30,175 nt of DNA from a virus. Lineage: Duplodnaviria > Caudoviricetes. Positions 12,162 to 28,483 of the stretch are shown here, piece by piece. The stretch spans positions 1 through 30,175 of the IMG/VR virus record IMGVR_UViG_3300037782_000107; one strand, given 5' to 3'. How positions within the stretch are numbered: position 1 is the first letter of the stretch; each line of letters begins with the position of its first letter. Made by a program: the position numbers and the translations under genes. Below the pieces are notes generated by a model, which had not been told where the DNA came from, did no database searches, and was given only the letters and a program-made list of their open reading frames with translations.

Positions 12162-13566
12162 GAGAGTCTCCAAGGGGCCAGCGCCCGCATCGCTGCGTGA
12201 CGCGGAGAATTGTGAGGCAGTCGCTGAGGTCGCCCTTGCTCCAATGGAACAGGTCGGTGTCCTCGACGACGGCGGCGAGCAGCGTCCGGTGCGGCTCAGG
12301 GATGGCCCAGAGCGCCGGCGCGAGGCGCCGCACGGCCCGCTGCTGCTTGACGGAGGGAAAGTCGCGTCGCCACGAGCCGTGCTTCTTCAGCTCGACCAGG
12401 CCGCGAGAGCGCAGGGCGAGGGCCGCCTTGCGCATGTACTTGGCGATCTCGTCCATCGGGACGATGTAGTCCGCGACGCCCGACTCGGGCATGAGCTCGG
12501 CCACCTCTTCGGCGAGCTGCTGCACCGGATCCTTCGTGGCGACGTCGCAGCCGAGCACCGCCTCGTAGTCGAGAGCGAACTCGTTGAAGAGGTCGTGCGG
12601 GTCGAGCACGCGCGGCTGTGGCTTGCCGTCGTGTGACCGGAGTACTCGTCCGACCATCTGGCAGAACGAGACCCTCGAGGTCATCGGCGCCCGCAACGCG
12701 AGCCACTCGAGCCAGGGCAGGTCCACGCCCTCGGTGAGCAGCTGGACGTGAACCAGCGCATCGACTTCGCCCATGAGTAGGTCTTCGATGAGCCGGTCCT
12801 GCGTGTCCTTGTCGTGCTTCGAGTGGATGGCAGCTGCGCGCACCCCGTGGTCGGAGAGGAACGCGGCGTAGTACTCGGCATCATCGATGTTCACTGCGGT
12901 GACAAGGCCGGGGCCGACTTCTCGACTCACCATCTCGAGCACTGCGGTGTCGATGTCGACGTCCCACTCGGTGCCGTCCCAGTGCACGAGCTCGGGCTCC
13001 ATCACCACGCCATCGCGCATCGCGTCGGCCGCGCTGTAGGCGTAGAGGAGCTCGTCGAAGTGCTTCAGCCGCCGGCGCTCGGCCGCCATGAACGGCGTCG
13101 CCGAGAAGCCCAGCGTGGCGTAGGGCTGCATCCGCTCGACTGCCGCGCTGATGCGGTCGGCGTTCGTCCGATGCGCCTCGTCGGCCAGCCAGACCGCTGC
13201 GTGGAGGCCTTCAGCCGCGAGCGCATCGGCGAGTGTCTCGGCCGACGGCACACAGCAGACGATCACCGGCCCGGTCGTGTCCTTCGCGTCGCTGAAGAAG
13301 GGCGACGCGCCGACGCCGTGCGCCCGGAGCGTGGCCACGAGCTGGCGCACGAGCGCGCGCGTCGGCGTCGTGAGCACGATGCGCCAGTCGTCGCCCAGGC
13401 CCTGGCAGAGTTGCCAGCAGAGCTCGGCGATGAGCAACGACTTGCCCGAGCCCATGACCGCCTGGACGATCGCTCGCTTGCCCGCGTGGAGCGCGTCGAT
13501 GCACAGCGGCAGCGCCTCGGCCTGCCACGCCCGCGGCGGGTATGGGGAGGTGGACCAGGCGATCAT
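12148..13566 (-). CDS. SF2 DEAH-box helicase (ResIII-like)
   Basis: RAWQ Q-motif, MGSGKS, DEAH, SATP, LTEGVDLP and QMVGRVLR motifs. Confidence 0.92.
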   Translation of the reverse strand: MIAWSTSPYPPRAWQAEALPLCIDALHAGKRAIVQAVMGSGKSLLIAELCWQLCQGLGDDWRIVLTTPTRALVRQLVATLRAHGVGASPFFSDAKDTTGPVIVCCVPSAETLADALAAEGLHAAVWLADEAHRTNADRISAAVERMQPYATLGFSATPFMAAERRRLKHFDELLYAYSAADAMRDGVVMEPELVHWDGTEWDVDIDTAVLEMVSREVGPGLVTAVNIDDAEYYAAFLSDHGVRAAAIHSKHDKDTQDRLIEDLLMGEVDALVHVQLLTEGVDLPWLEWLALRAPMTSRVSFCQMVGRVLRSHDGKPQPRVLDPHDLFNEFALDYEAVLGCDVATKDPVQQLAEEVAELMPESGVADYIVPMDEIAKYMRKAALALRSRGLVELKKHGSWRRDFPSVKQQRAVRRLAPALWAIPEPHRTLLAAVVEDTDLFHWSKGDLSDCLTILRVTQRCGRWPLGDSHVER

Positions 13567-16707: not shown

Positions 16708-16955
16708 GCTGCCGCCTCGAGGCCAGCGAGGAACGCGCGCCCTGCGTCGGTCGGGAGCCAGCAACGTGCGCCCCGGTGGTTGCGGTAGGCGTAGCCCATC
16801 TCGCCGAGCGAGATCGTTGCCGAGCGCGCCGCGCCGACCGACCGGTCGACGGCCTTGGCAATGTCGGCGAACGACGGCGGGCAGCCGTGCCGGTTGTGGT
16901 ACTCGACCAGCGCTCTGAGCACGGCCGTCTCAGTCGGATTCGGTGTCAGGGCCAT
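16704..16955 (-). CDS. Stand-alone LexA-like winged-helix DNA-binding domain (83 aa)
   Basis: TETAVLRALVEYHNRHGCPPSFADIAKAV...LGEMGYAYR matches the LexA N-terminal pattern. No peptidase domain. GGAGG RBS. Confidence 0.75.
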   Translation of the reverse strand: MALTPNPTETAVLRALVEYHNRHGCPPSFADIAKAVDRSVGAARSATISLGEMGYAYRNHRGARCWLPTDAGRAFLAGLEAAA

Positions 16956-18069
16956 CGGCCTCCTCCTTCCCCTCGTCCATCGGCATGATGACGTAGGCGA
17001 CTTCTGGGCGTGCGCTGTCGGTGACGTAGGTCGGCGAAGCCAGGCCCGCGACATCGAGCTTGACGTCGTCGCCCTCGATGACGGCGAGGACCTGGCGCAC
17101 GAATTTGTAGTTGTAGTAGAGGGCGAGCGGCGGGCTCTGCTCCGCGACACAGGGCACCGGGTCGACGAGCTCGCCGGAGACCTGGTCGGTCGAGAAGACC
17201 TCGAGCGTGCCGTCGCTGAGAGTCAGCCGGATTCGGTTCGACTTGCCCGCGAAGATGGCTGCCCGCTTCAGCGAAGCTGTGAGGCAGTCTCGGTTCACGA
17301 GCGCCGATGCGATCGGCTCGTGCCGGAAGATGTGGTCGCAGTCCGGGTAGCGCCCATGGATGAGCTGCACGACGATCCTCGTCTCCCCGGAGATGAAGAG
17401 CATGCGGTCGCCCTCGACACCCACGCCGACCACACCGTCGCCGCAGAGCAGACGCTGGAGCGCGGCCACGCCCTCTCGAGGAATGAGCGCGTCGATGTTC
17501 CCCCAGCTCTCCTCGGGCTGGGGACGCAGGGTCACCTGCGCGAAGCGCACCCGGTCGCTCGCGATCATGCGCAAGCTGCCGTCGAGGAGCTTGTGCAGCC
17601 ACGCGGCGCAGAACACGGCCTGGCTCTCGTCGCGGCCGATGAAGGGCGCCGTCTTCTCGAACATGTCGAGCAGCGTGGCGACGGCGATGCGGTGCGGCGC
17701 GTCGGGGTAGGTAGGCTCCTCCGGGAAGTCGCCCTGCTCGAGCTCGTTGACCTGGGCGTGTACCCGTGACTGGTCGATGACGAGCGCGCGCTTGAGCGAG
17801 TGGCACTCCACCGGCCCGGCCGGGCTCGACTTCACCGTCGAGAACACGCGCTTCAGGTCGACGACGACGCGGCCCGGCTTCTGGACGTCCGCCGCCACCT
17901 CGCGCCGCACCCAGACCACCAGGTCGGTCGCCTGCACGACGATGCGTCCGTCCTTGGTCGCGTCGATCTGGCAGCACGCCAGCACCGGCAGCGTGGCGCT
18001 GCTCTTCGTGACGACGCTCGCCGCGAAGAGGGCCTCGACGAATGCCTCTCGGTCGATCGTGAACTTCAC
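16930..18069 (-). CDS. dnaN: DNA polymerase III beta sliding clamp (phage-encoded)
   Basis: KFTIDRE, TLPVLA, ATDL, DFP, IASDRVRFA, LIPREGV, LIHGRYPD, YNYKFV and YVIMPM motifs. 379 aa from GTG 18069. Confidence 0.92.
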   Translation of the reverse strand: MKFTIDREAFVEALFAASVVTKSSATLPVLACCQIDATKDGRIVVQATDLVVWVRREVAADVQKPGRVVVDLKRVFSTVKSSPAGPVECHSLKRALVIDQSRVHAQVNELEQGDFPEEPTYPDAPHRIAVATLLDMFEKTAPFIGRDESQAVFCAAWLHKLLDGSLRMIASDRVRFAQVTLRPQPEESWGNIDALIPREGVAALQRLLCGDGVVGVGVEGDRMLFISGETRIVVQLIHGRYPDCDHIFRHEPIASALVNRDCLTASLKRAAIFAGKSNRIRLTLSDGTLEVFSTDQVSGELVDPVPCVAEQSPPLALYYNYKFVRQVLAVIEGDDVKLDVAGLASPTYVTDSARPEVAYVIMPMDEGKEEADGPDTESD

Positions 18070-18287
18070 GCCGCCACCTCGCGCTGGTGGCGAACCTGGC
18101 GGGCCTCGACGAGGGCAGCTTGGACGGAGGCGACCAAGTCCTTGCCAGGATAGTTCAGCGCGTCCTTGCCCCACGGCTTCACGGTGCAGAGCGCACCGTC
18201 GCCGTCGAAGGTGACGTGCACGAAGGTGCGGTCGCCGTGGGCCTTCTGGATGTAGTGGATGACGTACTCGAGTAGGTCGGTGGTCAT
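18066..18287 (-). CDS. Hypothetical protein (73 aa), first gene after attP
   Basis: GGAGGG RBS. The stop is coupled to the dnaN GTG. Confidence 0.7.
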   Translation of the reverse strand: MTTDLLEYVIHYIQKAHGDRTFVHVTFDGDGALCTVKPWGKDALNYPGKDLVASVQAALVEARQVRHQREVAA

Positions 18288-18317
18288 GACGGACCCCTCC
18301 TGTGAGCGCACCTATCC

Positions 18318-18567
18318 TGTGCCGCTATTGTGCCGCACCGAGGTTCGGTGCTATGCGCGACATGAGTCTAAGTGCGCGAAATGATGCTAGATGAGTGAAA
18401 CTCTACGGCCGCGCGCAAGCAACTACACGAAATCATAGAGGTTTCAGGTGGATAAGTTCATCTACTCGATGAACTACAAATGGTGCCGAAGCCCGCTCTA
18501 GAGCGGCTTCTCGATGCGTTCGAAATCTGCTTGTGCCGTAGATGTGCCGTGGATGTAGCGTGTGCCT
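18318..18567. other. Putative attP
   Basis: TGTGCCG arm-type repeats at 18318, 18329, 18532 and 18543 flank an AT-richer core. The core holds the inverted repeat AGTTCATC-N5-GATGAACT (18455-18475) and a tRNA 3'-end-like CTTCGGCACCA on the minus strand (18491-18481). Adjacent to the int stop. Confidence 0.75.
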
Positions 18568-19637
18568 TCGAGCGACTCGATGGCCTTCACCATCGCCGCG
18601 CCGTCGGGCGCCAGGTGTGCGTAGCGCTGGAGGACAGCCATGCTGGACCAGCCGCCGAGACGCTGGACGACGTTCAGCGGGACGCCGTTCGCCACGAGCT
18701 GCGATGCGAAGGTGTGTCGGGTCTTGTGCCAGTAGAAGCGCGCGGCGAGGTCGCCGTCGATCGCGCTGGCCGCGTTGCGCGTCTCCTGGTGCGAGAACTC
18801 GCCGCGCTCGCCATTGCCGCGGAAGACGTGCGGGTTGTGCAGCGCGCGCGGAAGCTCGGCGAGCGCGCGCGTGAGCTCCGGGCCGAGAGGGACGAGCCGG
18901 TTGCGCTGCCCCTTCGGGAAGTCCTGCCAGACCTCGCGCGTCGGGCGCGCCGTGTGGACGACCTGGCGTCGGATGTGAAGTCGCCCGCGCTCGAGGTCGA
19001 TGTCGTCCCACTGCACCGCGCGCAGTTCGCCCTTGCGGACGCCGGTCCTGAGCGCGAAGAGCACGTGGAGCCGAACGCCGTGCCGGTCCGCGATGCGGAG
19101 GAGCTCCGGCACCTGGTCGGCCGTGAACCACTCCTCGCGCGTCGCCCCGGGCGTGCTCAACTTCTTGAACTTCGGCGCCGCCGGGATGAGTTCCCACTCG
19201 AATGCGATGCGCAGCATGTGCTGGATGAGGCTGAGCACGTGGTTGTAGGTCGATGCGGCGAGTCCCTTCTCACCCATCGTGATCGCGAGCTCGTTCGCGT
19301 GCATCGTCGTGAATTCGTGCAGGTGCAGCAGGCCGAACTGAGGCTCGATGTGGTTGTCCCAGTAGCTGCGCTTCGCGGTGAGAGAAGCCGGTCGATTCAT
19401 CGTCTCGGCGACCGCGATGTACTTCGGCCACCACTCTCTGAACGTCATGTGCTTCGTCTGCGCCTCGACGCGACGCTGATACTCACCACTCGCCAACTCA
19501 CTGAGAATGCGAGCCTCGAAGGCCTTCGCGTCCTTCTGCGTGCGGAACGATGACTTCCGGAGCCGACCGTTCTTGTCGATGAGTCCATCGTGGACGATAT
19601 CTACCGCCCACTTCTTGCCACGTTTGCGCACACTCAT
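18498..19637 (-). CDS. int: Tyrosine integrase
   Basis: TGVRKGE, HKTRHTFAS, LGGWSS and QRYAH catalytic motifs, with an N-terminal arm-binding domain. ATG 19637 is coupled to the xis stop. Confidence 0.95.
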   Translation of the reverse strand: MSVRKRGKKWAVDIVHDGLIDKNGRLRKSSFRTQKDAKAFEARILSELASGEYQRRVEAQTKHMTFREWWPKYIAVAETMNRPASLTAKRSYWDNHIEPQFGLLHLHEFTTMHANELAITMGEKGLAASTYNHVLSLIQHMLRIAFEWELIPAAPKFKKLSTPGATREEWFTADQVPELLRIADRHGVRLHVLFALRTGVRKGELRAVQWDDIDLERGRLHIRRQVVHTARPTREVWQDFPKGQRNRLVPLGPELTRALAELPRALHNPHVFRGNGERGEFSHQETRNAASAIDGDLAARFYWHKTRHTFASQLVANGVPLNVVQRLGGWSSMAVLQRYAHLAPDGAAMVKAIESLEGTRYIHGTSTAQADFERIEKPL

Positions 19638-19825
19638 GACTCCTCCAGCGCGCGCAACTCCTGACGCTCGACCCACTCCTCGACACTCTTCCGGCGGAAG
19701 CGCATCACACGCGACCCACCGGTGAATTTCGGCAGAGGATCGACGCGCCGGCGCGTCCAGGCCCGAACGGTGTTCTCCGAGACGTTGAGAAGCTCGGCGA
19801 CCTCCTTTGTCTTCATGATGTCCAT
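19634..19825 (-). CDS. xis: Excisionase (HTH_17)
   Basis: MKTKEVAELLNVSENTVRAW...MRFRRKSVEEWV, directly upstream of int. Confidence 0.85.
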   Translation of the reverse strand: MDIMKTKEVAELLNVSENTVRAWTRRRVDPLPKFTGGSRVMRFRRKSVEEWVERQELRALEES

Positions 19826-19853
19826 GCGCGCCACCGTGTCGGATGATGAGTTC

Positions 19854-19890
19854 ACCCTACGTGCGCGCCCTGTCGTCGGCAATGGTTTTT
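19854..19890 (-). promoter_or_regulatory. Putative sigma70-type promoter for xis-int
   Basis: TTGCCG (19882-19877), 17 nt, TAGGGT (19859-19854), with an A-tract upstream. Confidence 0.5.
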
Positions 19891-19914
19891 TCGTGTCCAT
19901 AATCGTGACTTTCG

Positions 19915-19947
19915 CTCACCTCGCGCACAGGGACTCACCTCGCGCAC
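19915..19947. repeat. 14-bp direct repeat CTCACCTCGCGCAC x2 (19915-19928, 19934-19947)
   Basis: Exact repeat with a 19-bp period, upstream of the xis promoter. Degenerate copies lie nearby. Confidence 0.8.
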
Positions 19948-20009
19948 TGAGACTCATTTCGTTACGTTTCGTGTATTCTCGCGCAGGTTAATAAGTGGGC
20001 ACTCCGGAA

Positions 20010-20705
20010 TCAGTGCTCGCGCCGCCAGATCCGCACCTTCCGGCTGCCGCCTTCTCGCACCCGATGCGCGACGAAGCCGAGCTCACGCAGCGCAGTCGCC
20101 GCGCGACGAGCGTGGCTCGCGTTCGGGTTCGTGACGCCCCAGGCCAGGCGCGCGAACTCGGCGGAGGTCGTCTCGGTGACGCCCGCCATGAGCCGCGCGT
20201 ACCGGTCGCGCTCGCTCGAGTCGACGTCCGGCAGCATGCCCGCGCGCCGGAACGCCTCGCGAGCCATCGCGCCCGCCTCGGCCTTCGTCATCGCGCCGAC
20301 CTTGATGGCCTTCGCCGCGCGCTTCAGGGCCAGGTCGACGTCGAGCTCGGCGACCGACTTCCGCTCGTTCCAATACGCGTCGAGCACCTCGGCGCAGCGG
20401 CACTGGAAGAGCTCGAGCACCTCGCGAGCCCGCTCGTCCTTGATGCGGCTCGCGTCGATCGTCGCCAGCCACATCGGAACCTGCTGGCGAGGCAGCGCGA
20501 CCTGGTCCTGAGGCCCTCCCGCCGAAGGTGCCTGTATCATACAGGTGCCTGCCCAGACTTGTCGCGAGAGGCGCTGGCGCTGGCCCTCCCAGTCGATTCC
20601 GATCGACACGCAGATCGGCTTGATCGGAACCAGCTCCTCGTCGGGTAGAACCTGAATCTGGAAGCCGCTGAAGTCGATGGTCTCGATGCACTGAACTGCT
20701 GACAT
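20010..20705 (-). CDS. ant: Phage antirepressor (P22_AR_N domain)
   Basis: VPIKPICVSIGIDWEGQRQRL...VALPRQQVPMWLATIDASRIK...FQCRCAEVLDAYW. Confidence 0.88.
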   Translation of the reverse strand: MSAVQCIETIDFSGFQIQVLPDEELVPIKPICVSIGIDWEGQRQRLSRQVWAGTCMIQAPSAGGPQDQVALPRQQVPMWLATIDASRIKDERAREVLELFQCRCAEVLDAYWNERKSVAELDVDLALKRAAKAIKVGAMTKAEAGAMAREAFRRAGMLPDVDSSERDRYARLMAGVTETTSAEFARLAWGVTNPNASHARRAATALRELGFVAHRVREGGSRKVRIWRREH

Positions 20706-20728
20706 GATCTCGCTCCGTGGTAAGGGTG

Positions 20729-20839
20729 TTGACGTTCGCTGGCGACGCAGCCAATATGAAGTTGGCGGCGGGACTAACCTTCAAGTTGTCGCCACGGCTA
20801 ACGTCCTAACGTATAGGTTAGTCCCTCTGCTAATGTCAA
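20729..20839. promoter_or_regulatory. Immunity control region with face-to-face promoters and operator-like repeats
   Basis: Plus strand: TTGACG(20729)-17-CAATAT. Minus strand: TTGACA(20839)-18-TATACG. 11-bp inverted repeat GGGACTAACCT (20770-20780, 20815-20825) and further CTAACGT/CTAATGT copies. Confidence 0.6.
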
Positions 20840-20869
20840 AGGAACATTTTGCAGGTGAAGGCTACAGCT

Positions 20870-21187
20870 ATGGCTCTCGCACGAATCGAAGCTTACAGCG
20901 GGAAGATCGAAGACGAGCGGAAGCGTCGCGCCGCGGACACGATCCAGAAGATCCTCGACGAACACCGCATGAAGGCGACCGAGCTCGCCGAGACGCTCGG
21001 GGTGCACGCCCAGCCCGGGCGACCCAGCCAGGTCACGCGGTGGCTTCGCGGACACGACCTCGTCGGCTCGGACTACCAAGCGCTACTCGACATGATTGCT
21101 GATGGCCGCCTGGCGCTGAAGCACACGGGCAAGAGGGGCCGCCGCAACTTGTTCGAGCTGGCTTGCCCGGAAGAGCTCGCCGCCTAG
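20870..21187 (+). CDS. XRE-family HTH protein, probable repressor
   Basis: ILDEHRMKATELAETLGV...SQVTRWLRG. Divergent from ant-xis-int. No S24 peptidase domain. Confidence 0.7.
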   Translation: MALARIEAYSGKIEDERKRRAADTIQKILDEHRMKATELAETLGVHAQPGRPSQVTRWLRGHDLVGSDYQALLDMIADGRLALKHTGKRGRRNLFELACPEELAA

Positions 21188-21432
21188 TGCCGCTTCCGCG
21201 CCGCCCGGGTCTTCCGGAATCGCGTGCGCTCGCTGTGCCACGTGTAGACCGCGACGACGAGGCCAGCGAGCGCGAGCTCCTGGATGGCGACGCACACGCG
21301 CGCGAGCGTCCACCCGAGACGCTCGCCGATGTCTTCGACGCGCTCGTTCGGCACCATCGTGCAGTAGATGGCGTAAGCGTCGAGGCTGATGGGCCGCTTG
21401 TGAACGGGCGTCAGGTGGAACTCGTACTGCAT
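21184..21432 (-). CDS. Small winged-HTH protein (82 aa)
   Basis: VEDIGERLGWTLARVCVAIQELALAGLV. GAGGAG RBS. The stop overlaps the repressor stop. Confidence 0.7.
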   Translation of the reverse strand: MQYEFHLTPVHKRPISLDAYAIYCTMVPNERVEDIGERLGWTLARVCVAIQELALAGLVVAVYTWHSERTRFRKTRAARKRH

Positions 21433-21491
21433 GCTGCGTCTCCTCTGTACGCGATGCGTCCTCGGCGGACGCGATTCGGTGAGGTACAGAC

Positions 21492-21520
21492 TGGACAAGC
21501 GAGCAGCAGGGAGCTACGCT
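21492..21520 (+). promoter_or_regulatory. Putative promoter for a small antisense RNA
   Basis: TGGACA, 17 nt, TACGCT. Confidence 0.55.
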
Positions 21521-21526
21521 CCCCTC

Positions 21527-21599
21527 AACTCGTGGTGCTGCTTTGTCCAGCCCACACCAGAAGCCCTCGGCGCTCCAACGCCGGGGGCTTCGTCGTTTT
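21527..21599 (+). ncRNA. Putative ~70-nt antisense RNA to the leader of the 21432 gene
   Basis: Bounded by a promoter consensus and an intrinsic terminator. Contains one arm of an inverted repeat in the leader. Confidence 0.5.
21560..21599 (+). terminator. Intrinsic terminator
   Basis: 13-bp stem GAAGCCCTCGGCG/CGCCGGGGGCTTC with loop CTCCAA, followed by GTCGTTTT. Confidence 0.75.
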
Positions 21600-21703
21600 C
21601 GGCATGTCTGCCGTGCGGTGGAACCGAACGTAACAGCTCAAACACCACTGAGCAAATGTATAGTGGTCTTTTCTTGGTACGACGATTGAAAAAGGACCGA
21701 GCC

Positions 21704-22129
21704 ATGAACCGAATCGCCCCAGCTCTACTCGCCGCAACCCTGCTCTTCGCCTGCGCGGAAGACGATCCGGCGCCGCCAGATCTCGGCACGTTTGCTGTCG
21801 AGGGCGACTGTCCGGCGTTCGCTACTGCCGACCCGTACGACGCGATCGAATCTGGTCAGGCATGGAGCGAGGTCACGGGCGTCGCGTCGACCGTGCAGGC
21901 TGCTGCGTGGCGGATCGCCAACGGCGGCGCACCGCTCACCGAATGGGACGGCACGATCGACATCGGCCCCGACGCCGGCCTGATCGACAAGTCGATGCTC
22001 CCTCTCGTAACCGCGCCCGCTGTCGTCCCGCCCGAGGGCGGCTGCATCGGCCTCCGCTTCCAGGTCAACAACCCCGACGGCTCCACCTCGCTCGGCGAGA
22101 TGATCGTCGTCGACAACCCGGACACGTAG
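21704..22129 (+). CDS. Lipoprotein (141 aa)
   Basis: Signal peptide MNRIAPALLAATLLFA-C with lipobox. AAGGA RBS and an AT-rich upstream region containing TATAGT. Confidence 0.8.
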   Translation: MNRIAPALLAATLLFACAEDDPAPPDLGTFAVEGDCPAFATADPYDAIESGQAWSEVTGVASTVQAAAWRIANGGAPLTEWDGTIDIGPDAGLIDKSMLPLVTAPAVVPPEGGCIGLRFQVNNPDGSTSLGEMIVVDNPDT

Positions 22130-22132
22130 CGG

Positions 22133-22429
22133 ATGAACGACGACAAGCTGTGGAAGATCGTGATGCTCGCCGGCGGCGGATTCTTCGTGATCTTCGTGAT
22201 CGTGGTCACCGCGCTCGGCAGCGGCAGCGGCGACGCGTACGAACCGACAACGAGGCACACGAAGCCGACGCCGAGAACCACAGCGCCGGCACCACAGCCC
22301 GCCTATCGAGCGCCGGTGCGGAAAGCAGCACCGACACCGACACCGGCGGTCAAGCGAAAGCCGAAGTGCAAGAAGGGGAAGCCGTGCGGCAACAGCTGCA
22401 TCGCTCGAGACAAGGTCTGCCACAAGTAG
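22133..22429 (+). CDS. Membrane-anchored protein with Pro/Thr linker and C-terminal CKKGKPCGNSCIARDKVCHK motif
   Basis: One hydrophobic TM segment and a four-Cys motif. Starts 3 nt after the lipoprotein stop. Confidence 0.8.
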   Translation: MNDDKLWKIVMLAGGGFFVIFVIVVTALGSGSGDAYEPTTRHTKPTPRTTAPAPQPAYRAPVRKAAPTPTPAVKRKPKCKKGKPCGNSCIARDKVCHK

Positions 22430-22430
22430 G

Positions 22431-22646
22431 TCAGCCGCCCCACAGCTCCTCGAGCCCCTTCATGTGCAGCTCGCACCCGAGGCGCTCGGCGCCGAGCTCG
22501 GCCACCGCGACGATGACGTCCATGGCGTCGACGAGGCACACGTCGGGCTCGCGTGCGGCCTCGGCCTGGTCGAGCTGCTCGATGGCGCGCGCGAGGTTGG
22601 CGTAGGCGTGGCGGGCGGATGCGATGGCTTCGGCTGCGTGCGACAT
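22431..22646 (-). CDS. Small helical hypothetical protein (71 aa)
   Basis: GGAGGT RBS and GC-rich third positions. Confidence 0.65.
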   Translation of the reverse strand: MSHAAEAIASARHAYANLARAIEQLDQAEAAREPDVCLVDAMDVIVAVAELGAERLGCELHMKGLEELWGG

Positions 22647-22715
22647 GACGACCTCCGTTGTGGGTGACGGAGGGTTATCGGCAGGTCGGGCGCCCGCGTT
22701 TAGCGAAATCGACCC

Positions 22716-22834
22716 GGACAGTACTTGTCCGACACCAGTGCGTAGGCTCGACGGTCCGACGCCACGAAGTCGGACAAAGCCTGTCCAACTCGATCACGGT
22801 CGCTTGACGCGGGGAGGTGATGCCCCTCTATCGT
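22716..22834. promoter_or_regulatory. Two GGACA-N5-TGTCC palindromes (22716-22730, 22772-22786) and a possible plus-strand promoter TTGACG-19-TATCGT
   Basis: Seen directly in the divergent intergenic region upstream of the accessory cassette. Confidence 0.5.
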
Positions 22835-22869
22835 CTCAAGTTCGGACAGACGACTGCACGGAGGGGAGG

Positions 22870-23781
22870 ATGGGTATCGACGACCACGCGAGGTACTTGC
22901 TCGCGAATCGAGGCGAACCACATCTAGGGCCGGACCCGATCGACAAGCTCGCCGAACTTGATTCGGAAGAGGCCGGCCGGCTCAGGGTCGAGTACGATTC
23001 AGCGACGCGGCGCACTGTGCTGTTTGAGCTGCCAACGCTCGGTGCCGTGCCCCCGGCGTTCTCCGTTTCTCTGGAGGACAACCAATCCGGCGTTCTCGCA
23101 GCAGCGATAAGGCCGGGCGTCGTGCTTCTCGATGTACAGATCACAAGGAAGATCAACGGATCGTGGAACGGCGAGCGGACCACGATCTACCAGCCGACCA
23201 CGAAGTCGTGTCTCGTCCTTCAGGACTCGCCCACAGTCCTCATCGTCAACGCCTCTGCTAGAGAGGCCCGCAGAGTCGCAAGCGAATGCGCGCGATGGCT
23301 GTATCGAAAACAACCGAAGGATAACATTCGTGTTTTCCACGGTAGCGAGCTGATCCGGCCGGTCGCCATTCGGGATCGACACGTTCAAGCCGTCGTCGAA
23401 AAACTGAGCGCGAGATGGATCGATGTCGATGGGCCCAGCGCCGACGAGAGATATGGCCATCAACGGTTCCGAGCACGTCTCAACGCCACAACGCGGCGAC
23501 ACGAAGGCCTGAAACTTGAAGACGATCCAGCAAAGCGACAGCTTGAGGCCGGCGCGAATGATCGGCTGGCTGTATCGTTCGAACTTGTGCATGCAGACGG
23601 ATACGCCGAGCATGTCGAAGAGGTGCTCTTCCACCTCAGCGACACCAACGCATGCTTTGAACTGTTCGGCTCTGCGAGTCGAACCGCCCGAGACGTGGTC
23701 TTGGGCACCATCAGGGAGGTGTGCCTTGGAGCTTCAACTGGTCGAGAGACTTCGCGTACTTCTCCACTGCCATTTCGCTGA
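22870..23781 (+). CDS. Accessory cassette gene A, unknown alpha/beta protein (303 aa)
   Basis: Strong GGAGGGGAGG RBS before ATG 22870. More A/T-ending codons than the core genes. Confidence 0.8.
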   Translation: MGIDDHARYLLANRGEPHLGPDPIDKLAELDSEEAGRLRVEYDSATRRTVLFELPTLGAVPPAFSVSLEDNQSGVLAAAIRPGVVLLDVQITRKINGSWNGERTTIYQPTTKSCLVLQDSPTVLIVNASAREARRVASECARWLYRKQPKDNIRVFHGSELIRPVAIRDRHVQAVVEKLSARWIDVDGPSADERYGHQRFRARLNATTRRHEGLKLEDDPAKRQLEAGANDRLAVSFELVHADGYAEHVEEVLFHLSDTNACFELFGSASRTARDVVLGTIREVCLGASTGRETSRTSPLPFR

Positions 23782-24136
23782 GTTCGCCTCGGCGGTGCTG
23801 TACTACTCTGGATGGGCGAGCGCGAAACTCGAGGTCGATGAGCGAACCGTGATCGATGCGGCGCGTCCACTCGAAGGCGCGGGGCTAATCGTCTTGGGCC
23901 TCGAAGCACAGTGCGACGCATGCCGGCAGGTGGCCTGGTTCGGTGGTGCCGATCAGTTCCCGCAGGACACCACCGGCCTAACCTGTCGTCGTTGCTCCGA
24001 GCCGTTCGAGTTGGACGGCTGGGAGTTCCGAGCGAGCTTCTCGATCACCCCAGAATGGCGAGCCGCGGTCGAGCAGATTCGAGAAGCGGGAAACCGCCGG
24101 AGGGGGCTGAGCGCCGATGTCCCCCTGATTCACTGA
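23726..24136 (+). CDS. Accessory cassette gene B, wHTH-like plus Zn-ribbon protein (136 aa)
   Basis: TTG 23726 follows AGGGAGG. WASAKLEVDERTVIDAARPLEGAGLI helix-turn-helix/wing, and CDAC...CRRC. Confidence 0.78.
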   Translation: MELQLVERLRVLLHCHFAEFASAVLYYSGWASAKLEVDERTVIDAARPLEGAGLIVLGLEAQCDACRQVAWFGGADQFPQDTTGLTCRRCSEPFELDGWEFRASFSITPEWRAAVEQIREAGNRRRGLSADVPLIH

Positions 24137-24148
24137 GTCTCCCGGCGC
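24088..24148 (+). promoter_or_regulatory. Predicted -1 programmed ribosomal frameshift signal
   Basis: G_GGA_AAC in frame with gene B, a 6-nt spacer, stem 1 AGGGGG/CCCCCT and stem 2 GCGCCG/CGGCGC. The -1 frame is open to 24591. Confidence 0.75.
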
Positions 24149-24591
24149 CTCCGCCCCCCACCGACCCTAGCTTGGTGATCCACGTGACGAACAACCACAT
24201 CACGATCGACCGCTCCACAGGCGTTGCGATCAACAACGATAGCCCGGGTGCGAGCATTGTTCAGACGCTCGCACCGGACGAGGACGGCAAGTTCGCGAAG
24301 GAGGGTCTCGAACAGCTGTTTGGTCAAATCGCGCTCATGGCAGCGAAACAGGACGAGTACGCAAACGCGCAGGCCGCGATGTTCGTCAGGCTCCTCGACC
24401 AACACGACGAAACCCAGCTCGGTGTGGCAGACATCGTCGCGCTTGTGGAGCCTGCATGGATTAAACTCACGGCGAAGCAGTTCCAGGCGGACCCTGCGAT
24501 GGCAAAGGCTGCCGCTGCCTGGCTCGCTGACAAGTTCGCTGAGATGGGTCTCGTTGAGTTGGTGAAAGCACTCCCGGCCTTGGCTGGTTGA
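24094..24591 (+). CDS. Accessory cassette ORF C, probably expressed as a B-C transframe fusion (~288 aa); alternative own start TTG 24172 or GTG 24175
   Basis: Pro-rich linker, Asn-rich beta segment and helical domain with an amphipathic end. No Shine-Dalgarno before 24172/24175. Confidence 0.75.
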   Translation, partial: PPEGAERRCPPDSLSLPAPPPPTDPSLVIHVTNNHITIDRSTGVAINNDSPGASIVQTLAPDEDGKFAKEGLEQLFGQIALMAAKQDEYANAQAAMFVRLLDQHDETQLGVADIVALVEPAWIKLTAKQFQADPAMAKAAAAWLADKFAEMGLVELVKALPALAG

Positions 24592-24643
24592 CGACTGGCT
24601 CAGAGGCATGTCACGGCGCGCCGCGGGCCTCGTCGCAGACGGT

Positions 24644-24745
24644 GGAGCGGTGGCTGAGTGGCAAGGCGCCATTGGATCGGCGACCGGGGCTGGCGACCGG
24701 AACACGGCTGACGAGCCGACGCAGGTTCGAGTCCTGCCCGGTCCA
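24644..24745 (+). tRNA. tRNA-like element or pseudo-tRNA (class II, Ser/Leu-like body); anticodon not assignable
   Basis: Acceptor GGAGCGG/CCGGTCC (one G-G mismatch), D arm TGGCTGAGTGGCAAGGC, variable arm CGGCT-GACG-AGCCG and perfect T arm GCAGG-TTCGAGT-CCTGC. The anticodon region is about 36 nt. Ends ACTA, not ACCA. Confidence 0.6.
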
Positions 24746-25480
24746 CTACCCGCGCCAGCGAATCAGGTCCATGTCGAGGGCGGCGTTGACGTCGATGCTC
24801 CCGCGCGCCCACTTCGGCCGCCAGCTCGACGTCCACTGCCAGACGTCCCAGCCCTCGATGCGTGGGCCGCGCTCGATCTGCGCGACGGCGAGGCGATGGA
24901 ACTCGGCGAGCGGACGACCCTTTGTTGTCGGGTAGCGCGCCGACCAGCGGAACAGCTCCCGCTCGACGAACTCGACCTCGAGGCCGAGCGCCTGGGCGAT
25001 GATGCGGCATACTCGCGCGAGGTCGACCTTGCCGTTGCGGGCGAGCTTCCCGATGTAGATGCCGGGCAGGATGCCGAGCGCGTCGTACACCCGCACGACC
25101 CAGGAGGAGATCCAAAGCTCGTCATCGAACGAGTCGCCGGTCTCGCGCTCGTAGTCGAGCACGGGGCGCAGGCCTCGCGCGTCGATGTCGTCGAGCTCGC
25201 GCAGCAGCACCTCCGCCTCGATGTCCGGGTCGTCGGGGTAGTCGCTCGGGACGGCGAAGTGGTAGACGCCGACGTCGGCGATGCCCGCCTCTTCGAGGCC
25301 GCGGGCGTGTTCGCTGGCGAGCTTCGCGCCGAGCCCTCGAGGGTCGTTGCCCTGGCTCACCTTGATCCAGGCGAAACGCACGCCGTCGAGGGGGATCGCG
25401 TCGTAGTCGAGGCGCTTGTTCCAGCCGCTGAGGTCGATGCCCGGCACGCAGCCCGGCAGGTGGATGAGTGGCTCGCTCAC
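24746..25480 (-). CDS. Endolysin, GH25 muramidase
   Basis: GIDLSGWN, FAWIKVSQG, GVYHF, PVLDYE, VWQWTS and IDVN motifs. Confidence 0.93.
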   Translation of the reverse strand: MSEPLIHLPGCVPGIDLSGWNKRLDYDAIPLDGVRFAWIKVSQGNDPRGLGAKLASEHARGLEEAGIADVGVYHFAVPSDYPDDPDIEAEVLLRELDDIDARGLRPVLDYERETGDSFDDELWISSWVVRVYDALGILPGIYIGKLARNGKVDLARVCRIIAQALGLEVEFVERELFRWSARYPTTKGRPLAEFHRLAVAQIERGPRIEGWDVWQWTSSWRPKWARGSIDVNAALDMDLIRWRG

Positions 25481-25788
25481 GGGTCGCTCCTCTGGATGCG
25501 GGCCGCGAGCTCGGCGGCCTCCTCCTGGTCGATCAGCTCCTCGAGGCGGGCCGTCGCGTCGGCGAGCGAGTTGCTCGTCGCGATCAACAGCGCCCGGTGC
25601 GAGGCGTCGGTGGTCCCGCGCGCGAGGCCACGCACTCGCTCACGCGTCGCGGACACCTGCCCCCGCAGCTGACGCGTCGCCGAGACGAGAGCGCCGGAGC
25701 CGATGCGGACGAACGGCACCTGACTGTCGTCGCCGCGCCGGCGCAGGACGGCGGCCTGAGCGTGCGGTGGTGTGCGTCGGTCGCTCAT
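25477..25788 (-). CDS. Hypothetical helical protein (103 aa)
   Basis: ATGA coupling at both ends. GAGGAG RBS. Confidence 0.65.
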   Translation of the reverse strand: MSDRRTPPHAQAAVLRRRGDDSQVPFVRIGSGALVSATRQLRGQVSATRERVRGLARGTTDASHRALLIATSNSLADATARLEELIDQEEAAELAARIQRSDP

Positions 25789-25982
25789 GGCTCCTCGCGT
25801 GGTGGCACGGGGACGCGCTCGTCGCAGCGCTCGCGCCGGCAGCGGACGGTGGTGTGCTCCTCGAGCACGGTGGACTCCCACGCCTCGCCGCAGACGCAGC
25901 GGACGACGACGCGACGCCACGCGCCCGGCTTGGTCGGCCGCACGCGGGACAGCCCGGTGCCTCTGAGGCCAGCGACGCCCAC
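25785..25982 (-). CDS. Small Cys-rich protein (CVC...CRRERC); start uncertain
   Basis: Fills the gap between neighbours. The stop is coupled to the next ATG. Confidence 0.5.
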   Translation of the reverse strand: MGVAGLRGTGLSRVRPTKPGAWRRVVVRCVCGEAWESTVLEEHTTVRCRRERCDERVPVPPREEP

Positions 25983-25984
25983 GG

Positions 25985-26221
25985 TCAGTCGGCGCTGTGC
26001 CAGCTGGCCTGCTTGTCGAGAGCGGCGCGGACCGCGCAGTCCTTCGCCTCGAGCAGCTTGCGCAGCGCTACCGTGAGCTCGGGGCCGGCGAGCGCCGAGT
26101 TGTCGACGAGCGATTTGGCGAGGTCGTGGAACCCCTTCGAGATCTCGCGCAGATGCGGCGGCAGGTGCGCGTAGGCGAAGAGGACGGCGAAGTGTTCGAC
26201 GGCGGGATGATACTTGCCCAC
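25985..26221 (-). CDS. Conserved small phage helical-hairpin protein, possibly Acb2/Tad1-like
   Basis: FAYAHLPPHLREISKGFHDLA...ELTVALRKLLEAKDCAVRA. GGAGG RBS. The CDS is confident; the family link is tentative. Confidence 0.75.
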   Translation of the reverse strand: MGKYHPAVEHFAVLFAYAHLPPHLREISKGFHDLAKSLVDNSALAGPELTVALRKLLEAKDCAVRAALDKQASWHSAD

Positions 26222-26304
26222 GTGGGCCTCCGTTGGTGTGGGCGCTCAGCGCCCGATCAGGGACTCCAGGCCGCGGAGTGCGACCCGGCCGAGCACGTCG
26301 GCGG

Positions 26305-26709
26305 CTACTCGGCCGACCGCGCTCCAGTCGATTCGGGCACGCGCACCAGGAGCACGCGCCGGAGACCGAAAGGGAGCAGGCCACCCTCGGTCACACAGCG
26401 GGAGTCGGAGATCTCGGTCACGACGCCTTCGGCCACGGCGCCGGCGACGGACGCGACGACCGACGTGCAGCTGCCGAGCTCGCCGTCGTCGAACTGGATG
26501 CCGGCCTCCTCGACCTCGAGGTAGACGGGCGTGCCGTCGACGGTGAGCTCCACGCCGCCGGTGCCCCAGGCGCGCTGCACCTGGACGTCGGGAGCCGAGG
26601 CGCAGCCGGCCATCGTGATGATGCCGATCACGAGCATGATCGCGCCGAGGATGGTCAGCGCGGCGAGCACGACCTCTTCGGGGTCGATGCGGTGGCTATT
26701 CGTCTTCAT
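26305..26709 (-). CDS. Lipoprotein in the lysis region, possible spanin component
   Basis: Hydrophobic N-terminal segment ending in lipobox MAG-C. Beta-rich body with two further Cys. Confidence 0.7.
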   Translation of the reverse strand: MKTNSHRIDPEEVVLAALTILGAIMLVIGIITMAGCASAPDVQVQRAWGTGGVELTVDGTPVYLEVEEAGIQFDDGELGSCTSVVASVAGAVAEGVVTEISDSRCVTEGGLLPFGLRRVLLVRVPESTGARSAE

Positions 26710-26836
26710 CGGTGATTGCCTTCTGGTTGTTGGTGTCGCCCTCGCGCTGCAGGCGCCAGAGCTTGATCGCGCCGGTCGCTGCGATCAGGAATCCGGTGAT
26801 GGCCGAGATGAGCCCGGCCCAGTCGATGTCGTTCAC
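26696..26836 (-). CDS. Small single-TM protein, holin candidate (46 aa)
   Basis: NDIDWAGLISAITGFLIAATGAIKLWR plus a charged tail. GTGA coupling. Confidence 0.6.
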   Translation of the reverse strand: MNDIDWAGLISAITGFLIAATGAIKLWRLQREGDTNNQKAITDEDE

Positions 26837-26940
26837 GTGCGAATCCCCACGAGCTCGAGAATCCAGAGCAGCCCGAGCCACCCGGAGTAGGAGACGATGG
26901 CGCCAACCCAGGCGCCGATTGCGAGCAGGCCTCCGATCAC
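26833..26940 (-). CDS. Very small hydrophobic membrane protein (35 aa)
   Basis: IGGLLAIGAWVGAIVSYSGWLGLLWILELVGIRT. GGAGG RBS. GTGA coupling at both ends. Confidence 0.6.
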   Translation of the reverse strand: MIGGLLAIGAWVGAIVSYSGWLGLLWILELVGIRT

Positions 26941-27731
26941 GGCGTCCTCCCGTGTGTGGTGAGCCAGGTGACGAGGCGCGCGTAGAACTCGGGCGTCCAC
27001 GCGACGAAATGATCGCCGTCGACGACGTCCCAGCGCTCGACGCGGTACTCGCCTGGCCAGTAGTTGGCCGAGACCTCGTGGTCGCCGGTCGTCGCTACCC
27101 AGCCGCTCGCGCCTGCGGTCTGCGCGCCGGCGCCGTTGGTGCCGATCCAGCGCTCGAGCCCGGTCGTGACCGACGGGTGCGCGCCGAGCGCCTGGTTCCA
27201 CGTCCCGCCCTCTGGCCTGATGCTCGTGTCGGCCGTGCCGTGCACGTGCAGCAGGGGCACCGGCGCGACGGGCGTGTGCTTGGCGACGTCGAGCCAGGTC
27301 GCCCCTTTGAGGCTGGCCACGCCGGCGAGCCGGTTGCCCAACTCGAGCGCCGCCCTGTGGACCATGAAGCCGCCGTTGGACGAGCCGACCAGGTAGATCG
27401 TGTGGTGCCCAGAGCGCTCGAGCGCGTCGAGGATACGGCTGAGGTAGGCCACGTCGTCGGGCACGGGCGCCCCGGCGAGCCAGCAGCACGCGTCCGTCGC
27501 GGCCCAGGCCGGCGTCGCGCCGGAGCCCTGCGCCCAGACCACGGTGATTCCGGCCGCGTCGGCGACGTCCAGGAGGTCGATCTCGTTCGCCCTCGTCGCC
27601 GCGGCCGTCCCGCTGTAGCCGTGCAGCCACACGATCGCCGTGCCGGCCGGCGAGCTCGGCATGTCGAACAGTTCGGCGCGTCCCGTCGCTGCGAGGTTCG
27701 GGGCCGCGGATGGTGCTCCGAGACCCCTCAT
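26937..27731 (-). CDS. Alpha/beta hydrolase, LpqC/PHB-depolymerase-type esterase
   Basis: WLHGYSG, AWAATDACC, DDVAYL, GSSNGG nucleophile elbow, HVHGTAD and GDH triad motifs. Confidence 0.9.
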   Translation of the reverse strand: MRGLGAPSAAPNLAATGRAELFDMPSSPAGTAIVWLHGYSGTAAATRANEIDLLDVADAAGITVVWAQGSGATPAWAATDACCWLAGAPVPDDVAYLSRILDALERSGHHTIYLVGSSNGGFMVHRAALELGNRLAGVASLKGATWLDVAKHTPVAPVPLLHVHGTADTSIRPEGGTWNQALGAHPSVTTGLERWIGTNGAGAQTAGASGWVATTGDHEVSANYWPGEYRVERWDVVDGDHFVAWTPEFYARLVTWLTTHGRTP

Positions 27732-28483
27732 CCAAAACCCCCGGGGCCCTGCGAGTAGATCTGCTCGGCGTACGCGCTCCAGTCCTCCGTGCCGAACGCG
27801 GCCTCGTACACGATCCCATTGAGCGCGAACGTTGGTGTCGCCACCTGGGTGTCGCCGAGCCGCATCGCGTGCGTGGCGTTGCCCGTCGCGACGGCGAGTG
27901 CGGCAGCGGAGTCTACCTCGACACCATCAAACGCCAGGCGAGCCGTGACCCCGTCGCAGGTCAGTAGCGCGTGGTGAATCTGGCCCACCGTGACAGCGTT
28001 CGGATCGGTGTTGAGGCGCACGATCTGAGGCGCGACGCCTCGCACGATCTGGGCGCTCAGCATCCGATCCCCGAGCTCGGAGAAGTCGTCGTCGACGAAT
28101 ACCGAGGTGCCTTTGGTTGCGGCGCCGAGCGCGTTGCCTGCTACCACCTCCAGCGCGTCCGCCTCGGCTGGACCCGCCCACTCGAAGAACAACGACTGGC
28201 TGAACACCTGCGTCTGGTGCTGGTAGTTGAACGTCGAGGCCGTCCCGAGCGTGGTCCACTGCGTGGCCCCGTCGTAGATCACGCCAGGCGGATCCGTCGC
28301 GATCGACGGGTCGCCCGTGTGCACCCCGTTGACGACCCCGGCGATCTCCTCGGGCCACCCGCCGACCGTGGGATTGCGGTACAGGTAGGTGAGGCCCGGC
28401 AGCCCGAGGACGACGTCGACGTCTCGGCGGCGTCGATCGCGGCCCGGAGGCCGCGGCGGGCGCGCTGGTCGCGGTGGCCTCAC
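27728..28483 (-). CDS. LamG/concanavalin A-like beta-sandwich protein, probable tail/receptor-binding component
   Basis: IHHALLTCDGVTARLAFDGVEV and MRLG...LNGIVYEAAF patterns. GTG 28483 is coupled to the upstream stop. Confidence 0.72.
   Translation of the reverse strand: MRPPRPARPPRPPGRDRRRRDVDVVLGLPGLTYLYRNPTVGGWPEEIAGVVNGVHTGDPSIATDPPGVIYDGATQWTTLGTASTFNYQHQTQVFSQSLFFEWAGPAEADALEVVAGNALGAATKGTSVFVDDDFSELGDRMLSAQIVRGVAPQIVRLNTDPNAVTVGQIHHALLTCDGVTARLAFDGVEVDSAAALAVATGNATHAMRLGDTQVATPTFALNGIVYEAAFGTEDWSAYAEQIYSQGPGGFG

Follow-up and report, generated by a model that had tools for sequence, protein, structure and literature searches.

The window analyzed here, a stretch of 30,175 nucleotides (nt), is the complete virus record IMGVR_UViG_3300037782_000107 and represents a temperate tailed phage. 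The portal, terminase, primase, helicase, sliding clamp, integrase, antirepressor, and GH25 endolysin genes of this phage are encoded on the minus strand. On the plus strand, flanked by the integrase/antirepressor region and by the convergent GH25 endolysin gene, lies a compact cassette, shorter than 2 kb, of three open reading frames (ORFs), designated A, B, and C, followed by a tRNA-shaped RNA (Table 1). An earlier note on this DNA had described the cassette as a candidate undescribed defense-like system in a moron position, opposite to the lytic genes and between immunity and lysis. This placement was confirmed, with the antirepressor on one side and the endolysin on the other, as were all coordinates: A and B overlap by 56 nt, C lies in the −1 frame relative to B, and the RNA begins 52 nt after C.

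Table 1. Features of the cassette and its surroundings (positions in the window; aa, amino acids; SD, Shine-Dalgarno; HTH, helix-turn-helix).
Feature	Positions	Strand	Remarks
Gene A	22870-23781	+	ATG start; 303 aa; two tandem alpha/beta domains (predicted)
Gene B	23726-24136	+	TTG start; 136 aa; SD pairing −15.1 kcal/mol
Slippery heptamer G_GGA_AAC	24088-24094	+	In B's frame (Gly-Asn), after B residue 123, at the end of the B domain
Predicted frameshift-stimulating stem-loop	24102-24158	+	7 nt past the heptamer; includes B's stop codon
Small predicted hairpin	24159-24180	+	Hides the extended SD (24174-24180) of C's start
Gene C	24184-24591	+	135 aa from GTG 24184; N-terminal N/I/V/G/T/S-rich strand motif, five-helix bundle (predicted)
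tRNA-shaped RNA	24644-24745	+	Rfam RF00005, 33.7 bits vs gathering score 29
GH25 endolysin	24746-25480	-	Convergent to the cassette; stop codon abuts the discriminator base of the tRNA-shaped RNA
Integrase	18498-19676	-	
Antirepressor	20010-20705	-	
HTH-looking ORF	20849-21187	+	Same strand as A, 1.7 kb upstream of it; by inspection only
Lipoprotein-like ORF	ends 22129	+	Between antirepressor and A
98-aa membrane protein	22133-22429	+	N-terminal membrane helix, Pro/Thr-rich linker, short basic Cys-rich tail; no family match
71-aa ORF	22431-22646	-	Between the 98-aa membrane protein gene and A

The cassette stands apart from the rest of the phage in codon usage, which agrees with the earlier note. 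The G+C content at third codon positions (GC3) is 0.64 in A, 0.72 in B, and 0.73–0.74 in C. Of 13 reference phage genes, 12 have values of 0.83–0.93, and the other one, a LamG tail-type gene, has 0.73. The coding score of each of A, B, and C is highest in its own frame. The phage is present in pond metagenome runs, and a single phage population is known to carry the cassette. Contigs of run X1, which is possibly the source sample, cover positions 20000–28000 with no difference and no indel; run X7 (23866–24121) and run X6 (24155–24485) likewise show zero differences and no indel, and positions 24122–24154 are covered by X1 alone. A sequencing-error indel as the origin of the B/C split was rejected for the covered parts because independently assembled contigs lack it. 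One RNA run contributed three 151-nt contigs lying on A, B, and C, a type of contig that cannot show transcription.

None of the three proteins gave a Pfam, PHROG, or NCBIfam match above the cut-off, and PADLOC returned a single weak row, for A (E 0.054), in line with the earlier statement that all three are unrecognized. For A, a single-sequence model (pLDDT 51) contains two alpha/beta domains. In the ESM Atlas, A was placed with unnamed bacterial and archaeal clusters (features 0.93–0.94, TM 0.65–0.70 as given by row), the nearest named clusters by features were GAPS4b_N (0.86; 15% of the cluster) and CENP-L (0.84; 31%), and a structure row with a TM of 0.35 contained DUF4747 (29%) and DUF6731 (22%); Atlas scores below 0.9 are leads only, and the two Atlas searches are treated here as a single line of evidence. 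In VIA comparisons, the C-terminal half of A was aligned with yeast kinetochore chain N (Z 5.4, rmsd 4.0, 91 aligned) and human CCAN chain N (Z 4.3, rmsd 3.8, 88 aligned); the best Z for A was 6.1, and neither RdgC nor RexA was among the rows listed. Foldseek on the predicted structures, the route named in the earlier note, gave no match for A at E 0.001 in PDB or BFVD and no fold match for C. Pairwise comparison of A with RexA and RdgC, an insensitive test, detected no sequence similarity. Against a profile of 24 RdgC sequences, A scored no higher than its shuffled versions, and this profile missed the RexA control as well. An identity as alanine dehydrogenase, suggested by weak rows (E 5e-4), was rejected as inconsistent with the predicted fold. 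The leads for A, each of them weak, converge on a possible RexA/RdgC/GAPS4b/CENP-L-N DNA-clamp scaffold. The RexA scaffold is common to RdgC, IML3, and CHL4 (PMC11077077), DUF4747 is a mark of Rex-like soluble components (PMC7542560), and GAPS4b is predicted to form a ring around DNA (PMC13748975).

B carries a CxxC-x20-CxxC zinc ribbon inserted in a helix-turn-helix-wing pattern, which by inspection we read as a winged helix. Its Pfam match to Zn_ribbon_4 (E 0.0036) is below the cut-off. In the Atlas, B resembles soluble zinc-ribbon clusters, with clusters of 130–149 aa at 0.91–0.94, the best of which (0.94) has 14% DUF5939. A search for DUF5939 found it in none of 351 genomes but in none of 14 controls either, and is thus uninformative; the domain is not mentioned in the literature searched. 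We read B as a likely DNA-binding zinc-ribbon adaptor. Because their Atlas clusters score 0.93–0.94 (A) and 0.91–0.94 (B), both proteins are members of wider families.

The earlier note had linked B to C through a frameshift signal, and close inspection of the junction bears this out. B's frame contains a single X XXY YYZ heptamer, G_GGA_AAC. It is followed, after a 7-nt spacer that falls within the range of 5–9, by a 3′ structure, and the frame of C, −1 relative to B, is open from 23842 to the stop at 24591, such that all elements of a −1 signal are present. The predicted stem-loop has an interrupted stem of 14 base pairs (bp) with a folding energy of −27.9 kcal/mol (z −2.85), which 3 of 200 shuffles equaled. 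It ranks in the top 3% of 6024 windows and is the strongest downstream fold among the 15 heptamers in the window; of 600 random positions, 5.2% equal it, with a window length that was fitted to this stem. Only one canonical in-frame heptamer is present in the 5873 codons of 15 other ORFs, and the chance of finding one in the shuffled 98-codon overlap is P 0.069. Past the heptamer, the 13-codon tail of B has a poor coding score (−0.23 vs 0.14 for B). A −1 shift would yield a 288-aa B-C protein (123 + 165). For halovirus HCTV-1 and for Caulobacter phage Colossus, the same heptamer has been reported as the g-t shift site (PMC3556154, PMC5009743). On this sequence evidence, we give real −1 frameshifting at the heptamer slightly better than an even chance. 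Two further slippery-type heptamers, GGGAAAG (12355–12361, plus strand) and AAAAAAG (4247–4241, minus strand), have weaker downstream folds.

A different origin of the junction would be the splitting of an ancestral gene into B and C by a natural 1-nt indel, in which case the cassette would be decaying and the RNA would be a pseudogene. The acceptor mismatch of the RNA, its lack of a normal anticodon loop, and the occurrence of the cassette in one phage population only agree with such decay. However, A, B, and C carry no other lesion, the contigs compared contain no indel variant, and the RNA retains an intact tRNA elbow as well as its two extra hairpins; moreover, a random indel would bring neither a heptamer with a properly spaced stem nor a separate SD for C. 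We consider this origin improbable.

The predicted structure of C consists of short strands followed by five helices (pLDDT 62). Its maximal 19-aa hydropathy is 1.35, giving no clear membrane helix. The first 25 residues of C stand out with a crude score of 0.80, which was reached by none of 5540 windows in 15 other ORFs and is a measure of composition, not a BASS profile search. This composition fits the enrichment in Q/N/G/V/I reported for the approximately 25-aa BASS amyloid motifs (10.1101/2020.01.06.895854; also 10.1101/2024.11.07.622273).

The gene layout, the heptamer, the hairpin, C's own start, and the composition are seen in the sequence. We tentatively read A-B-C as a lysogen-expressed abortive-infection system, with A as a clamp sensor, B as an adaptor, and C as an arrest domain carried by a minority of B through the −1 frameshift, and we hold this reading at somewhat below an even chance. 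In the proposed mechanism, a dimer of A, the predicted RexA/RdgC-type clamp, would sense an invading phage by clamping aberrant phage DNA, and B would dock as a DNA-binding adaptor. A small share of B would carry C, the putative cell-arrest domain, by the −1 frameshift, and clustering would allow the N/I/V/G-rich strand motif of C to polymerize and thereby switch on the helical bundle. C alone may also be made at a low level from its hidden start, and the tRNA-shaped RNA may mark or stabilize the 3′ end of the transcript where the lysis operon meets it. We infer the scaffold of A, the defense role, the frameshifting, the polymerization of the C motif, and every functional step.

Several points weigh against this reading. 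First, the GTG 24184 of C has a strong SD (−11.4 kcal/mol), a value reached by 1 of 218 internal start codons and lying within the range of −3.2 to −12.3 kcal/mol of eight other genes. Second, neither hydropathy nor fold search gave C a catalytic or membrane-spanning toxic feature, and its motif has no partner motif in A (maximum 0.68) or B (maximum 0.44), unlike BASS pairs. Third, A is not basic (41 K+R, 43 D+E, pI 6.5), whereas RexA and RdgC have basic DNA-binding faces, and its kinetochore rows in VIA, obtained with a model at pLDDT 51, are matched in score by the unrelated KA1, SMC, and lipid-binding folds. Fourth, the rank of the stem-loop fold is flattered by a 57-nt fold window that was fitted to the hairpin, and A_AAC shifts less well than A_AAG in E. 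coli (PMC5009743). Finally, no sequence homolog of A, B, or C was found in any search run, and co-occurrence of the genes or a B-C fusion elsewhere is consequently unseen.

Because C has a strong SD of its own, the frameshift is unnecessary for making C. In the same defense-type cassette, C could instead simply be a third gene with translation starting at GTG 24184, with the heptamer present by chance (approximately 0.07) and the hairpin acting as an intercistronic stabilizer or coupling element. Gene callers do call C as a stand-alone gene of 138–139 aa, its SD is strong and extended, and the first 26 C-frame codons past the heptamer score poorly as coding (−0.33). A stand-alone C would also have its amyloid-like motif at the N-terminus, as in Agp and NLR partners (10.1101/2024.11.07.622273). 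On the other hand, the SD and the start codon of C are both predicted to be base-paired, and the heptamer, the 7-nt spacer, the strong stem, the open −1 frame, and a domain boundary all coincide. We regard C as solely a third gene as possible but rather doubtful, and both routes, frameshifting and independent initiation, may operate. Of the earlier proposal that a minority B-C product is the toxic effector, the frameshift signal thus stands, but the fusion is not required as sole effector, since C can plausibly start alone. The B/C arrangement recalls that of IS3 elements, which produce an upstream protein (OrfA), a downstream protein with its own start (OrfB), and a fusion of the two (OrfAB).

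The cassette might also serve no anti-phage function at all, with A and B being DNA-binding proteins that regulate either the lysis-lysogeny switch or transcription in the host, and C an unrelated helper. RexA is a DNA-binding protein that can bias the lambda switch in the absence of RexB, and RdgC is a regulator of recombination (PMC11077077); B is regulator-like, and no toxic domain was identified. However, the prokaryotic look-alike families GAPS4b, DUF4747, and DUF6731 are defense-linked, and the composition of the C motif resembles that of immune signaling motifs, which makes a purely regulatory role quite unlikely in our view.

Read as an abortive-infection system, A-B-C can be compared with known systems. 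It is similar to RexAB and the rex-like pairs (Sbash gp30/31, CarolAnn gp44/43, Butters gp30/31; DUF4747, DUF6731) in that these are prophage accessory genes near the immunity region, and A, as an approximately 300-aa two-domain alpha/beta protein, has look-alikes in the RexA/RdgC/IML3/CHL4 scaffold. The lambda rexAB and actinophage rex-like pairs are located beside the repressor (PMC11077077), and the cassette has a comparable placement by the integrase and antirepressor (18498–20705) and the HTH-looking ORF. It differs in having a zinc-ribbon protein and a soluble helical protein instead of a four-pass membrane partner, and classical RexAB membership was rejected because no RexB-like four-pass membrane effector is seen, as judged by the hydropathy of C and by the soluble look-alikes of B. 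In the DUF6731 loci found in 3 of 301 genomes (L038, L039/L041, and L040), the gene after DUF6731 encodes a small hydrophobic protein each time, which resembles the RexAB arrangement, and a zinc-ribbon protein in none; at L039/L041 the match is split across two frames. GAPS4, composed of the PD-(D/E)xK nuclease GAPS4a and the DNA-encircling ring GAPS4b, shares with the cassette a clamp-type sensor plus a separate effector, and GAPS4b_N is A's nearest named feature cluster. However, the HGxD-SxK nuclease motif of GAPS4a (PMC13748975) is absent from B and C, and the cassette has three ORFs and a frameshift signal rather than two genes; with no Pfam match in addition, GAPS4 membership was rejected. 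The cassette may work like RexAB or GAPS4 while being a member of neither.

Other systems share single traits with the cassette. As in Bab/Agp and BASS pairs, a short N/G/V/I-rich strand motif is joined to a small helical domain in C, but the order is motif-then-helices rather than Bell-domain-then-motif, and the cassette lacks both a second protein with a matching motif and an NLR or TPR-GreA/B-PIN partner. Azaca, which the earlier note had named among the systems to check and which consists of the DUF6361 protein ZacA, a PLD nuclease, and an SF2 helicase (10.1101/2025.07.10.664194), is alike in having three genes only; it was excluded, as A, B, and C gave no Pfam or PADLOC match to its domains, contain no Walker A or HxKxxxxD motif, and all fall short of the length of an SF2 helicase. 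The Cys4 zinc finger of RAZR is fused to a HEPN domain (PMC13017515). G_GGA_AAC is shared with −1 frameshifts reported for phage tail chaperones, whereas here it lies in a non-structural accessory cassette. The main text of DefensePredictor, searched by term, mentions none of DUF4747, winged helix, amyloid, or frameshift (PMC13092281).

The homolog searches covered proteins, viral and metagenome contigs, phages, plasmids, and bacterial genomes. A word-index protein search returned only the phage's own A and B, with nothing for B among longer proteins. Viral contigs gave no hit for B or C and one locus for A, which was rejected as an antisense match over another gene; metagenome contigs gave none for A or C, and neither did tblastn against phages and plasmids. 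For B, tblastn listed four plasmid and five phage rows, all with an E of 0.1 or worse, and the one inspected was judged a chance match. In 301 genomes of one phylum, around a Clostridia genome, two weak rows for A and four for B were rejected, since stops interrupt five of these six and the remaining one runs antisense to a permease. The best plasmid matches of the phage sliding clamp are 24–28% identical, and the phage integrase gave one match (26%) among genome contigs.

The tRNA-shaped RNA has a 7/5 acceptor/T branch with one G.G acceptor mismatch, conserved D and T loops, and no encoded CCA; ARAGORN at default settings called no tRNA at 24644–24745. Its middle can be folded into a stem of 3–4 bp with an 8-nt loop and two hairpins, or into a 5-bp stem with a 19-nt loop and one hairpin, such that the anticodon/variable region is enlarged and neither fold yields a 7-nt anticodon loop. 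The 7/5 branch, the GG of the D-loop, the UUCGA of the T-loop, and the long variable region are shared with class II tRNAs (Ser/Leu/Tyr type), and the 5′ half resembles tRNA-Ser; the 8-nt or 19-nt loop, the extra hairpin, the acceptor mismatch, and the missing CCA set it apart from this class. Its branch also differs from the 8/4 or 9/3 acceptor/T-stem branch that defines allo-tRNAs (Mukai et al., PMC5389517). Taken over its full length, the RNA has a folding energy no better than that of shuffled sequences (z −0.75). Two tRNA patterns matched no viral contig, and blastn gave short partial matches only. The 20 direct families and 25 inverted pairs of repeats listed for the window include no long repeat of the RNA, and no tRNA fragment was seen by eye after the integrase, which leaves an attachment-site origin unsupported.

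The earlier note had also proposed that the level of B-C depends on ribosome or tRNA status. The RNA would then be a working part of the system, as a decoy, an antitoxin, or a frameshift modulator. It lies on the same strand, 52 nt past C with no promoter-like site between, its elbow is intact, and phage tRNA variants reportedly counter tRNA-cutting defenses. However, the slippery codons are those for Gly and Asn, for neither of which the RNA offers a canonical anticodon or anticodon loop, its G+C content is phage-like (0.71), and A, B, and C have no RNase domain that we could find. The dependence is thus unsupported, and a working role of this kind seems very improbable. The RNA is likely a non-decoding tRNA relic and not an input to the frameshift, and it is tied to A-B-C by position only. 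Since the RNA ends directly at the stop codon of the endolysin gene and the search for a terminator between the convergent cassette and endolysin units found none, a role in 3′-end processing or stability would be its simplest use.

Upstream of the cassette, no sigma-70 promoter was found by consensus, including in 22650–22860. A-B-C probably has its own promoter in this interval, because the minus-strand 71-aa ORF parts A from the membrane protein gene. The lipoprotein-like ORF and the 98-aa membrane protein may form a superinfection-exclusion pair or provide a membrane partner for A. The integrase lies inside the early leftward run, upstream of the phage sliding clamp (16930–18174 region, minus strand), Sak4, and a Cas4-like nuclease, and an AT-richer gap at approximately 18310–18500 is a candidate attachment site or promoter. 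In the 3′ region of the endolysin, a contig of run X2 (25043–25144) shows 15 differences, evidence of a related variant of the phage in these ponds.

The interpretation in the earlier note is upheld in part: its moron position, foreign codon usage, and −1 frameshift signal stand, and the language-model and structural look-alikes lead to scaffolds associated with defense, but the fusion is not required as sole effector, and the dependence on tRNA or ribosome status is unsupported. At one locus and with weak fold leads, the cassette is a credible but unproven Rex-like prophage clamp-sensor defense variant with a plausible programmed frameshift. A fuller scenario appears unlikely: a new RexA/RdgC-scaffold defense in which the frameshift would set the ratio of free adaptor to fusion, clustering on A-bound phage DNA would nucleate the amyloid-like motif of C and arrest the cell, and an anticodon-less tRNA mimic would be a co-transcribed partner. 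Should the cassette be protective, the RexA/RdgC clamp scaffold would gain a third type of effector, beyond RexB channels and the GAPS4a nuclease. Translational recoding would then also set the stoichiometry of an immune complex; no such case, and no defense system built on a −1 frameshift, surfaced in the literature searched, at the level of listings.

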